Shown here: in pieces, positions 41,060 to 45,522 of the stretch
Numbering within the stretch: the first letter of the stretch is position 1
How the letters are laid out: every line of letters begins with the position of its first letter
Source: Myxococcota bacterium
GTDB lineage: Bacteria; Myxococcota; XYA12-FULL-58-9; JALHOP01
Assembly (NCBI GenBank): GCA_022842935.1
Contig: JALHOP010000014.1
Coordinates: 58,053 to 122,052 of the forward strand
Direction of reading: 5' to 3'
Length of the DNA stretch: 64,000 nt
Notes under the pieces: model-generated
What the model was told of the DNA's origin: nothing
Databases searched by the model: none
What the model saw: the letters and a program-made list of their open reading frames with translations, nothing else
Translations under genes and position numbers: made by a program

Positions 41060-42874
41060 ATGGATCCCGTCAAAACCGCTGGGGTGCCCGCGCACCCCTG
41101 GTCCCAAGAACCGTCCCGCGCAGAGGCGGCTCCGCGCCCGCGGCGGCTCGATCCGCCCAAGGTCGTCACGATCGGCGAGATCCAAGGCGCCGACTTACGT
41201 TCGCCTCTCGACGGCCAGCGCGTGACAACCACCGGGGTCGTGACCGCGGTCCGCAGCACGGGCTTCTACTTGCAGGCAGAGAAGGGCGAGAGTGCCCCGG
41301 GCTCGCGCGCGGTTTGGGTGTTCACTGGCCGCGACATGCCGAACGTCGCCATCGGCGACAAGGTCACGGTGACGGGCGATGTGAAGGAGTTCAAGTTCGA
41401 TACGAGCCCCCAGGACCAACCCACGACAGAGCTCGCCGGCCGGCTAACGATGATGATCGTCGCCCGCGGGTTGAACCTCGACGCAGCCGTCGGCACACCG
41501 CGCCGCATCGGCAAAGATGGGCTCGTTCAGCCGAACATCAAGGCAGTGGACGCCATCAAGTTCTACGAGGGCATCGAAGGCGAGCGCGTGACCATCAAGG
41601 ACCTGCTCGTCGTCGGCCCGACGTCGTTCGGCAAATTCGTCGTGGTGACCGACGGAGGGAGTCTCGCCACCCGCATCACCAAGCGGGGCACGCTCATCGC
41701 ATCGACGGACGATGACGTTCACCCCGAGGCGATCGCGGTCAAGGTCGTGTCCGGTCGAGCGGACATCATCGACGATATCGAGGCAACCCCAAAGCTCAAG
41801 GTTGGGGACCGCATCCCTGGCGAGGTGACCGGTATCCTCACCTACGATCGCGGTCAGTTCGTGCTCGAAACGACCGCGCTGCCCGCCATCACGGAGGCAC
41901 CTGCTTACGAGTTCAAGACCTCGCTGAAGGCGAGCGACACCGAGATGCTGGTCGCGAGCGTCAACTGCGAGAACCTCGACCCAACCGACGGCGTCAAGCG
42001 CTTCGACCTGCTCGCAGGTAAGATCGTCAAACGCTACGGGTCGCCCGACATCGTCGCGCTCCAAGAGATTCAAGACGACGACGGCCCTGCGGACACCGGT
42101 AACGTGAGCGGCAAGCTCACGGGCAAGATGTTGTGCGACGCCATCGAGAGGGCGGGCGGGCCGAAGTACACGTATGTCGAGATCGCTCCGGTGAACAACG
42201 CCGAGGGCGGAGAGCCCGGCGGCAATATTCGCGTCGCCTATCTGGTGCGCACAGACCGCATGGAGCTGGACGAGAAGAATCTGCGCCGTATCGGCGAGGG
42301 GGATCCGGCCTTTCAAGACACCCGCAAGTCACTCGAGCTCCACGCGACCTTCAAGCCGACCGGCAAGAAGGTCGTGCTCATCAACGACCACTTCAGTTCG
42401 AAGGGTGGCTCCGACCCCGTATACGGTGAGCGGCAGCCGCCACAGGTCCCCACGCACCCGAAGCGCGTCGGTCAGCAGCTCGCGGGGCACAAGCGCATGG
42501 TTGAGCTCGGTAAGCAGTTCCCAGACGCCGCGATTGGCTCGATCGGCGACAAGAACTGGACGCCCGGCGAAGCGGTCCGCAATACCGAGGCCAGTCTGCG
42601 TTCGAAGATCGTCAACGTCAGCGCCGAGCTGCCGGACGACGCTGGCCACTCGTACATCTTTATGGGCGGTGCCCAGAACATCGATCAGCTGCATGTGCAC
42701 GTGGGCACCAAAGCGAAGCTCGAAGTCGACGACTCGAATACGCACCTTTGGTTTGGACATCCAGATCGAGACGCCGATCATGGTCACCTGCTCGCTCTCT
42801 TCGACATGCGTGTGCAGGCGAAACGCGGAAGGCGCGCTGGTGCTAGCCGCGCCGCCCGCTCGCGAGCTGCCTAA
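41060..42874 (+). CDS. Endonuclease/exonuclease/phosphatase (EEP) family protein, probable extracellular nuclease
   Basis: 604 aa. EEP-type segments (SPDIVALQEIQDDDG, VVLINDHFSSKGG). The C-terminal about 40 codons are duplicated at 45408-45522. Confidence 0.75.
   Translation: MDPVKTAGVPAHPWSQEPSRAEAAPRPRRLDPPKVVTIGEIQGADLRSPLDGQRVTTTGVVTAVRSTGFYLQAEKGESAPGSRAVWVFTGRDMPNVAIGDKVTVTGDVKEFKFDTSPQDQPTTELAGRLTMMIVARGLNLDAAVGTPRRIGKDGLVQPNIKAVDAIKFYEGIEGERVTIKDLLVVGPTSFGKFVVVTDGGSLATRITKRGTLIASTDDDVHPEAIAVKVVSGRADIIDDIEATPKLKVGDRIPGEVTGILTYDRGQFVLETTALPAITEAPAYEFKTSLKASDTEMLVASVNCENLDPTDGVKRFDLLAGKIVKRYGSPDIVALQEIQDDDGPADTGNVSGKLTGKMLCDAIERAGGPKYTYVEIAPVNNAEGGEPGGNIRVAYLVRTDRMELDEKNLRRIGEGDPAFQDTRKSLELHATFKPTGKKVVLINDHFSSKGGSDPVYGERQPPQVPTHPKRVGQQLAGHKRMVELGKQFPDAAIGSIGDKNWTPGEAVRNTEASLRSKIVNVSAELPDDAGHSYIFMGGAQNIDQLHVHVGTKAKLEVDDSNTHLWFGHPDRDADHGHLLALFDMRVQAKRGRRAGASRAARSRAA
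42745..42862 (+). repeat. Direct repeat copy A (about 120 bp) at the 3' end of the nuclease gene
   Basis: Roughly 85-90% identity (by eye) to 45408-45522. Both copies encode (W/L)(F/Y)GHPDR(D/H)ADHGHLLALFDMRV in frame. Confidence 0.7.
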
Positions 42875-42901
42875 CCCCAGTGATCGCCTGTGTTCGCGGG
42901 G

Positions 42902-43801
42902 TCAGAGCGCGGCACAAGCATCCAGAAATCCAGGCATGAAGTGGTCGGAGTCGACGTGCTCGACCGCCAGCGCGCGCGTATCATTGCCCGCTCGCGCGGA
43001 GTACTTGTCGATCTCGGCTCCAAGCTGCGACGCGAAGTGCGGATCGTCCCAGCGCAGCTTGCGTATGCCGTAGCCCGAGCAGTTGCGATCGAATGCAGCG
43101 GCGAAGCTCGCGCGGTCCACGAAACCATCCCCGCCGTTGACGCCAAGCACGACGACGTTGCGACCGCAAGCCATGGCCTCGTAAGCAGAGCGGCCACAGC
43201 CAAGCACGAGGTCGAAGTAGCCGTAGTACGCGTGCATGTCCCAGATGGGCATCCCGAAAGCGAGCTCGGCAACCGGAACCAGCTCGACACCGCGTTCCTG
43301 AAACACCGGACGGATTCGCTCGAGGTATTCGGGCGCTCGGCGGCGATCGGCTAGAAGCGCCGTTCGCGCCGCCTCACGCAGCGGCTTCTGCGATGAGAAG
43401 CGCGCCACGTCGATCACGTTGGGGAGAAAGCTGACGCGATGCCCCGGGAGGCGTGCTGCGTAGTAACGGGTCATGAACGGGCTCAACGCCACGACGTGGC
43501 GCACGTCGCGGAGGCCTTCGGGTTGGTATTCGTGCGCTAAAGGGCCCAGGCCGTGCGCGAATGCCAACACAGGAGCCCGCCATGGCCCGCACGCAGCGAG
43601 GCTCTTGCCATCCGAGACCAGCGCGACGTCGTACGCGACGTCGGGAAGGTGGGTGCCGACGGTCGTTGGAAAGTGGCGAGCGATCTGGGTCTCGACGACA
43701 TCCATCGTCGACTCGCGAAAGACGATGTGTGCATGCACCTCGTGCCCATGACGGGCGAGCCATTGCGCGACGGTGAAGTTGAACGTTGTCACGCCCGTCA
43801 A
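42902..43801 (-). CDS. Glycosyltransferase family 4-like protein
   Basis: 299 aa. N-terminal TTFNFTVAQWLARHGHEVH and C-terminal AYEAMACGRNVVV resemble GT4 motifs. Confidence 0.55.
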   Translation of the reverse strand: MTGVTTFNFTVAQWLARHGHEVHAHIVFRESTMDVVETQIARHFPTTVGTHLPDVAYDVALVSDGKSLAACGPWRAPVLAFAHGLGPLAHEYQPEGLRDVRHVVALSPFMTRYYAARLPGHRVSFLPNVIDVARFSSQKPLREAARTALLADRRRAPEYLERIRPVFQERGVELVPVAELAFGMPIWDMHAYYGYFDLVLGCGRSAYEAMACGRNVVVLGVNGGDGFVDRASFAAAFDRNCSGYGIRKLRWDDPHFASQLGAEIDKYSARAGNDTRALAVEHVDSDHFMPGFLDACAAL

Positions 43802-45225: not shown

Positions 45226-45407
45226 GAGCTGGATTTCCTTGTGTCACGGGCGCGAGCTCGGGACCCGACGAGCTGGTTGCGCTAACCTTCTCCCCGCGCA
45301 CCCTGCTTGGATACCGACGTAGGCTGTAAGTATGGCAGCGCTGCCACCGCGACAGGTCGAACCGGGCCGCCACGCGCCCGAATGGCCAACTCCCGCGTGA
45401 GGACTCG

Positions 45408-45522
45408 CCTTTGGTACGGACATCCAGATAGACACGCCGACCATGGTCACCTACTCGCTCTTTTCGACATGCGCGTGCCCGCGAAACACTGGAGGCGCGC
45501 TGCCGCCTAGCCGCGCCGCACG
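45408..45522 (+). repeat. Direct repeat copy B; contains an in-frame remnant of the nuclease C-terminus and overlaps the M3 peptidase start
   Basis: See copy A. Copy B has an 8-nt gap relative to A after GACTCG and ends in TAG (45508-45510). Confidence 0.7.

Follow-up and report, generated by a model that had tools for sequence, protein, structure and literature searches.

We analysed a 64,000-nt stretch of DNA from a Myxococcota bacterium (GenBank assembly GCA_022842935.1, contig JALHOP010000014.1, positions 58,053 to 122,052 of the forward strand), referred to here as the window, in which a two-gene, toxin-like module lies between a nuclease gene and a peptidase gene and is bracketed by direct repeats. 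The nuclease gene (41060–42874, plus strand) encodes a 604-aa endonuclease/exonuclease/phosphatase (EEP) protein of the ExeM/NucH-like type, as assigned from its open reading frame (ORF), Pfam and NCBIfam searches, and the orthologs P0002 to P0006. The family matches, to Pfam Exo_endo_phos and NCBIfam ExeM_NucH_DNase, were both weak, and close relatives of the protein were few (83% aa identity with P0002, 74% with P0003, and 63% with P0004). The peptidase gene, with a predicted start at 45443 and an end at 47557 (plus strand), encodes a 704-aa lipoprotein peptidase of the M3 family, similar to oligopeptidase A and Dcp (Pfam Peptidase_M3, E = 4.8e-102; NCBIfam). Both genes of the module were found on the minus strand, opposite to their neighbors, as a first-pass annotation made from the letters of this region had already indicated: a gene for an acidic, effector-like protein of 456 aa with a pI of 4.05 (43855–45225), recognized by homology searches; and, directly downstream of it, a gene for a compact glycosyltransferase of GT-B fold, similar to glycosyltransferase family 4 (GT4) (42902–43834, or to 43801 if read from a TTG codon).

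A search for repeats within the window matched positions 42740–42839 to positions 45403–45502, with 85% identity across 100 nt. In a gapped local alignment of the upstream copy (copy A, 42745–42858) with the downstream copy (copy B, 45408–45522), 98 of the 115 columns were identical and a single 1-nt indel was present. The alignment score was 143, compared with 21.2 ± 2.3 for shuffled sequences (n = 300; shuffle maximum 31), and the similarity of the copies is thus significant at the nucleotide level. The direct repeats of about 120 bp that had been judged by eye to be roughly 85–90% identical therefore proved to be 85% identical over 115 columns, far above chance. Alignment with orthologous sequences set the exact limits of the duplicated target at 42741–42858 for copy A and 45404–45522 for copy B, both on the plus strand. 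No second repeat of a comparable kind brackets any segment within the 64-kb window.

The site is empty in related genomes. In L002, L001, and L004, whose nucleases are 83%, 74%, and 63% identical (aa) to that of the window, the M3 peptidase gene comes immediately after the nuclease gene, and neither the GT4-like gene nor the acidic gene is present between them. L001 is identical to the GTDB locus L005, from a metagenome-assembled genome (MAG) labelled Bdellovibrionales, and L004 is 99.9% identical to L006, from a Myxococcota MAG; the number of independent empty-site genomes is consequently three (L002, L005, and L006). In these relatives, the neighborhood consists of a lipid A acyltransferase gene, a small ORF, the nuclease gene, the M3 peptidase gene, and a cupredoxin gene. 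When the window was aligned to the empty-site genomes by BLASTN, the alignment ran to approximately 42810–42828 and resumed exactly at 45404, continuing through the peptidase gene with 77–85% identity; the flanks of the window are syntenic with L005 over at least 20 kb. The comparison with related genomes that the first-pass annotation had proposed as a check was thus positive in all three, and the arrangement with both copies is not one that all relatives share. A filled site was found in L042, which is 100% identical to the window and represents the same population. Scans of GTDB genomes and of JGI metagenomes for closer relatives added only L006 and the distant loci L047 and L048. Based on flank identities, L002 and L005 are mutually closest, with the window outside them and L006 further out; given this branching order and the three empty sites, a single gain in the lineage of the window is the parsimonious solution.

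Copy A falls at the end of the 604-aa ORF, and the repeat search, the alignments, and the codon table agree that it serves as the 3' end of the nuclease gene, as the first-pass annotation had stated. It contains the last 38 conserved codons of the nuclease, whose orthologs keep the same conserved C-terminus. A 1-nt deletion in copy A has removed the ancestral nuclease stop and added a tail of 9 aa, and this deletion also breaks a vestigial peptidase frame: the vestigial peptidase start is present as an ATG at 42780–42782, now frameshifted, and the former stop as a TAG at 42844–42846, now out of frame.

Copy B is colinear with the 3' end of the orthologs' nuclease genes in the ortholog alignments, and in the nuclease frame it still reads TRLWYGHPDRHADHGHLLALFDMRVPAKHWRRAAA followed by the old stop, TAG, at 45508–45510. 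The peptidase ATG (45443), together with the 39 nt located 5' of it, is contained in this copy. In four of the four genomes compared, the peptidase frame can be read upstream without a stop as far as one conserved ATG, which lies 68 nt before the nuclease stop, inside the GAC-CAT-GG codons of the nuclease (D-H-G, part of ...DHGH...). The lipoprotein signal that follows is conserved across the four genomes (RAFFFGLxIFSLTLAAC). In the empty-site genomes and in copy B, the signal peptide reads ...RAFFFGLSIFSLTLAAC, then GGRKG, a stretch beyond the nuclease stop that is nearly invariant, and the indels in the linker after the lipobox are all multiples of 3. The peptidase of L047, a distant homolog (60% identical) with no nuclease gene upstream, likewise starts with a lipoprotein signal, KRLSLLGPLIFIAAC. 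From the conserved ATG to the hydrophobic core of the signal peptide, L002 contains no other ATG, GTG, TTG, or CTG, so that its peptidase start must lie upstream of the nuclease stop. Since the signal peptide is conserved and no other canonical start is available, we infer that the nuclease and peptidase genes ancestrally overlap by 68 nt, at 11709–11776 in L001/L005, 3482–3549 in L002, and 11739–11806 in L006, the equivalent in the window being 45443–45510.

In the window, the start of the signal peptide is confined between an upstream in-frame stop (at about 45400) and position 45525. Since this range lies wholly within copy B, copy B appears to be the working 5' end of the peptidase gene. 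The first-pass annotation was therefore right that the nuclease frame of copy B is still readable and that the copy overlaps the 5' end of the peptidase gene; its description of the copy as a mere remnant does not stand, as the copy holds the true 5' end of that gene. In the relatives, for example L001, the start that the gene caller assigned to the peptidase is a GTG located about 125 nt beyond the nuclease stop; this is about 190 nt too far downstream and truncates the conserved lipoprotein signal peptide; we think that this GTG start is a gene-calling artefact. A terminator-like hairpin at 45513–45527 was within chance expectation and overlaps the FFF codons of the signal peptide, and was rejected.

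To place the two copies relative to the orthologs, we compared distances over the repeat. Copies A and B differ by 0.153, compared with 0.27–0.31 between either copy and L002 or L005, and 0.39–0.40 between either copy and L006. In 12 columns, A and B are the same and differ from all three orthologs, and these columns include non-coding bases after the stop. Among the informative sites, 17 group A with B, and the two alternative groupings are supported by 3 sites each. The copies are thus sister sequences, which implies an origin in the window's own lineage or in some unsampled but very close relative. Assuming similar local rates, A and B separated at about half the depth of the split from L002/L005, and the event would be old.

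The changes that could be polarized differ between the copies. Nine are derived in copy A: in the conserved core, five synonymous changes together with two mild ones, R>H and Y>F; and in the variable tail, P>Q and the 1-nt deletion. Five are derived in copy B, including, in the nuclease frame, D>H at an Asp that is invariant in all orthologs and RG>HW, which indicates that this frame is decaying there. These numbers are small, although they point in the same direction, and the polarized changes fit separate constraints on A and B. As read from the sequence, each copy is functional coding sequence, A for the nuclease gene and B for the peptidase gene.

Between the copies lies unique DNA of 2,545 bp (42859–45403), which, based on alignment gaps and ORFs, is absent from L002, L005, and L006 and consists of only the two minus-strand genes and short spacers (27–178 nt). 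The duplicated segment (119 bp) begins 39 nt before the peptidase ATG and ends 12 nt beyond the ancestral stop of the nuclease gene, and includes the entire 68-nt overlap. The insert is placed exactly between the copies: its ends are the ends of the duplicated segment, and 0 target bases are missing from either copy. This exact junction would be expected if the target-site duplication had formed in the course of the insertion itself. An earlier tandem duplication that was later hit at random, anywhere in a dispensable stretch of 51 nt, would rarely give an exact junction. The unique insert and copy B both start with CTCGC (5 nt), which may be a junction microhomology or chance.

In the ORFs and Pfam matches of the insert, no integrase, transposase, or other recombinase is encoded, in keeping with the absence of integrase and transposase noted in the first-pass annotation, and the repeat search of the window found no terminal inverted repeats at the insert ends. 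The 64-kb window contains no tRNA gene, and no other mobile-element feature was found nearby; a search of 40000–48000 against Rfam returned no RNA family. Flanking repeats are absent at the other indels between the window and L005, and also at the other genomic copies of the GT-like module. The GC content at third codon positions of the module (0.75–0.77, compared with 0.81–0.83 in the flanks) is close to that of the host, the difference being too small to decide its origin.

With the repeat, the empty sites, the grouping of A and B as sisters, and an insert lying exactly at the duplication junction as the observations to be explained, we consider it probable that the locus arose by a single duplicative insertion in the window's own lineage, which duplicated the overlap so that both genes stayed whole. 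In the ancestor, the nuclease and lipoprotein M3 peptidase genes would have overlapped by 68 nt, with the peptidase ATG inside the ...DHGH... codons of the nuclease. In one event, a two-gene fragment of 2,545 bp would have been inserted and 119 bp of the target duplicated. As the duplicate covers the whole overlap, copy A could then end the nuclease gene while copy B started the peptidase gene, both genes being intact because the duplicated segment contains the whole overlap. Afterwards, each copy would have been under only one of the two former constraints, and the long duplication would have been retained as the sole way of keeping both overlapping genes intact. The physical process may have been the fill-in of breaks staggered by 119 nt or, alternatively, replication that switched template to the donor and then returned to a point 119 nt upstream. 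An insert that lies exactly between two direct copies of its target recalls transposable elements, where such copies result from staggered-cut fill-in. However, target-site duplications of bacterial elements are generally 2–15 bp long, and the duplication described here is 119 bp long and is accompanied by neither terminal inverted repeats nor a transposase.

Several points weigh against this reconstruction. We know of no bacterial insertion mechanism that routinely yields a target duplication of 119 bp. The substitution counts are small (9 derived in A, 5 derived in B, and 4 ambiguous). The peptidase start at ATG 45443 is a prediction from sequence only, the predicted n-region of the signal peptide is unusually long (27 aa), and gene callers chose the downstream GTG instead. 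Finally, an unsampled close relative that already carried the module at this site would, as a donor, produce the same sister pattern.

This last point leads to the most serious rival, 3'-end displacement, in which the incoming DNA brought its own nuclease 3' end, so that copy A would derive from the donor, an unsampled close relative, and copy B would be the resident end that was displaced. The route would be either a Campbell-type single crossover of a circle carrying the module and a junction of about 119 bp, or homology-facilitated illegitimate recombination anchored in the nuclease gene. A gene with a new 3' end, followed by a module and then the old 3' end, is the footprint described for type VI secretion system (T6SS) effector-immunity displacement and Rhs C-terminal displacement (PMC5361080), and for the T6SS pairs that study, which cites Jackson et al. 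2009 (PMC2935791), proposed homology-facilitated illegitimate recombination with the displaced 3' fragment downstream and no integrase. The present locus shares with T6SS, Rhs, and contact-dependent inhibition (CDI) systems a toxin-like module beside a conserved gene, a displaced 3' fragment downstream, and the lack of an integrase. In those systems, however, it is the toxin or delivery gene, with a constant 5' part and a variable 3' part, whose 3' end is duplicated, and orphan immunity genes build up downstream of that end, whereas here the duplicated gene is an unrelated, syntenic nuclease gene, the toxin-like gene is on the opposite strand, and only one event is visible. No orphan immunity gene follows copy B, which leads without a break into the M3 peptidase gene, the order also seen at the empty sites.

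Other features of the locus can be read in favor of displacement. Copy B is slightly nearer to the orthologs than copy A (0.27–0.28 versus 0.305), the tree of the nuclease gene disagrees with those of the flanks, which hints at recombination within it, and the module occurs at non-syntenic sites in other genomes and is thus mobile. On the other hand, the 12 derived columns common to A and B, including the non-coding bases after the stop, would require the donor to be very close kin. Such a donor would already have to possess this left junction, located within the coding region of its peptidase gene at 12 nt beyond the nuclease stop, and the existence of this donor would merely shift the problem of origin to another genome; moreover, sliding-window identity gave no clear breakpoint in the nuclease gene of the window. 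Overall, we regard displacement as possible but clearly the less probable course. The first-pass annotation had left open whether the repeats were the footprint of an insertion or of a 3'-end displacement: the insertion is borne out by the empty sites in three relatives, and displacement by a foreign copy is disfavored by the sister relationship of A and B.

It is very unlikely that the module is what remains of an integrase-borne island of the e14 or phage 21 type, with A and B as attL and attR and the recombinase and the remainder later deleted. Such islands are typically bounded by direct repeats, about 100 bp long, that consist of a gene's 3' end, and the insert described here is indeed flanked by repeats derived from the 3' end of its target gene. 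In Escherichia coli, icd extends into the e14 prophage at one flank, and a C-terminal pseudogene, icdC, is found at the other (PMC13626634). As with e14 and phage 21 in icd, the insert is flanked by two diverged 3'-end copies, of which the upstream one keeps the gene functional and the downstream one stays behind (PMC13626634). Nevertheless, e14 is a prophage of 15 kb that encodes a site-specific recombinase of its own and brings a surrogate 3' end of foreign origin, while the insert described here is 2.5 kb long and has no recombinase, its copies are sisters rather than host and element copies, and the downstream copy is a working 5' end and not a pseudogene. Furthermore, two intact genes with spacers of 27–178 nt contain no trace of a recombinase, neither of them matches plasmids or defense-system models, and the flanks are syntenic with L005, with no tRNA gene or mobile-element feature nearby. 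The least credible account, in which the module and both copies are ancestral and recombination between the repeats removed the module from the relatives, thereby creating the overlap, can draw on the tendency of direct repeats to promote such deletions and on the variable interval between the acyltransferase and peptidase genes in distant relatives (L043 and L047), but it would require at least two independent, identical losses (in L006 and in the ancestor of L002/L005), each giving the same 68-nt overlap, and explains neither the origin of the repeats nor the derived states that A and B have in common and that the orthologs lack.

Among the two proteins encoded by the insert, the acidic protein has a single full-length homolog, P0122 (47% identical), in searches covering 5.8 billion proteins. 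In L003, the gene for P0122 is also followed by a GT-like gene, and the pair lies between unrelated genes, for an S8 peptidase and a TonB-like protein, with no nuclease gene nearby. In a profile search of 1.84 billion representatives, the N-terminal 50–170 residues or so of the acidic protein were matched in P0128, P0129, P0130, P0132, and P0134, which are large proteins with differing C-terminal parts. One of these, P0129, is encoded outside the insert but within the window (51800–56995, minus strand): it is a giant protein of 1,731 aa with a PT-TG pre-toxin domain (33.8 bits versus a cut-off of 23.5) and a paralogous N-terminal domain, whose first 60 residues or so are about 70% identical to those of the acidic protein (BLASTP, E = 3e-22). 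The two genes are also similar in DNA sequence, with 72% nt identity over 135 nt beginning exactly at the ATG. The shared N-terminal domain is presumably a trafficking domain. In this family (the acidic protein, P0128, P0129, P0132, and P0134), no significant Pfam match was obtained for the domain, with only a sub-threshold match of P0128 to Bflower_2.

The C-terminal domain of the acidic protein, about 120 aa long, is known in only one other protein, P0122, and the profile search of the same 1.84 billion representatives returned no distant homolog of it. The alignment with P0122 contains an invariant pattern of Cys, His, and Asp, from which a papain- or transglutaminase-like domain is a guess. 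An AF2 model of this domain, built from 2 sequences, had a pLDDT of 44 and was unusable. No recognized pre-toxin or toxin domain was found in the acidic protein by Pfam, NCBIfam, PADLOC, or a PDB sequence search, and the PDB sequence search, PADLOC, and plasmid tblastn were all empty for both genes of the insert. The term 'toxin-like' used in the first-pass annotation is nonetheless reasonable, as the N-terminal domain is common to the acidic protein and to P0129, with its PT-TG domain.

The glycosyltransferase was identified by Pfam (Glyco_transf_4, 32.5 bits versus a cut-off of 28.5), by structure prediction, and by its homologs P0124 to P0127. Its AF2 model (pLDDT 85.7, pTM 0.87) has the two Rossmann domains of the GT-B fold, and the best Foldseek matches of the model were PimA, PglA, and BshA (E from 1e-8 to 1e-7). 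The only canonical start codon, the TTG at 43801, lies downstream of the codons for the conserved first strand (RFLVVFSHNR), and the in-frame starts upstream of this strand are CTG codons only (43834–43832 and 43858–43856). The start is likely the CTG at 43834–43832, and the gene would show either non-canonical CTG initiation or early decay. Homologs with 41–43% identity in L044, L045, and L046 likewise follow a gene on the same strand, and the proteins encoded by these upstream genes were not significantly similar to the acidic protein (hhalign, E = 0.02 over 41 columns). As these partners are not demonstrably relatives of the acidic protein, a role of the glycosyltransferase as a cognate immunity protein seems less likely than one as a modifying or co-functioning enzyme. 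In the more distant relative L044 (3951–6977), the GT-like gene and its upstream partner adjoin a cytochrome c maturation (ccm) operon with TPR/CcmH genes, a site different from that in the window, which indicates that the pair relocates.

The module resembles polymorphic toxin systems in that an N-terminal domain is common to proteins with unrelated C-terminal parts, one of which, P0129, carries PT-TG, and in that a small partner gene is located directly downstream of the acidic gene. It differs from them in that the acidic protein itself has no recognized pre-toxin or toxin domain and in that the downstream gene encodes a GT-B glycosyltransferase. An N-terminal domain of the polymorphic-toxin type joined to an orphan C-terminal domain, and paired with a compact glycosyltransferase, is a previously undescribed combination; so far it has been seen in no more than a handful of metagenomic contigs, and may merit testing as an effector system.

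Upstream of the acidic gene, the spacer at 45226–45403 is derived from the insert. Judged by position, this spacer would carry the promoter of the acidic gene (minus strand), and the new promoter of the peptidase gene (plus strand) would be located within 45226–45442. A scan of 45226–45403 for promoter consensus sequences gave nothing convincing, nor did scans for promoters and terminators and the folding of the convergent gene ends.

We also made several observations on the surrounding region. In the nuclease gene tree (window positions 41060–42740), the window and L002 are closest, whereas the acyltransferase and peptidase genes instead pair L002 with L005, and the N-terminal part (about 500 nt) of the L005 gene is an outlier in the comparison. 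Past recombination within the nuclease gene, or its rapid divergence, may account for this discordance. A 150-aa ORF (40535–40987, plus strand) is located between the acyltransferase and nuclease genes; it has 55–60% nt identity with its counterparts in L002 and L005, compared with 77–90% for the surrounding genes. In L047 (1347–4448), the acyltransferase gene is directly followed by a lipoprotein M3 peptidase gene, with no nuclease gene, and in L043 (784–4322) a SWIB-domain gene follows the nuclease gene and the peptidase gene is missing. Compared with the window, L005 contains about 4.7 kb of extra DNA (window 47882–47939 versus L005 14151–18914); conversely, two segments of the window, of about 0.7 kb (35840–36515) and 1.2 kb (36812–38033), are extra or diverged relative to L005. 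None of these three differences is flanked by direct repeats.

Taken as a footprint, the locus is fairly ordinary, being of a known kind and not that of a new kind of element; what it adds is a repeat that resolves the overlap of two genes. The 68-nt overlap escaped automatic gene callers, and with the peptidase start that they chose, copy B looks like junk although it is coding. It seems doubtful to us that the duplication is the signature of an undescribed, recombinase-free insertion of effector cassettes, for example by a replication template switch to a donor and back to a point upstream. If such a route were real, long target duplications would let new genes enter tightly packed, overlapping junctions, with the duplicated overlap splitting its two coding functions between the copies. 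The locus offers a clean natural example of a bacterial genome accepting genes at an overlapping junction, where each copy of the overlap would keep one frame while the other decays.

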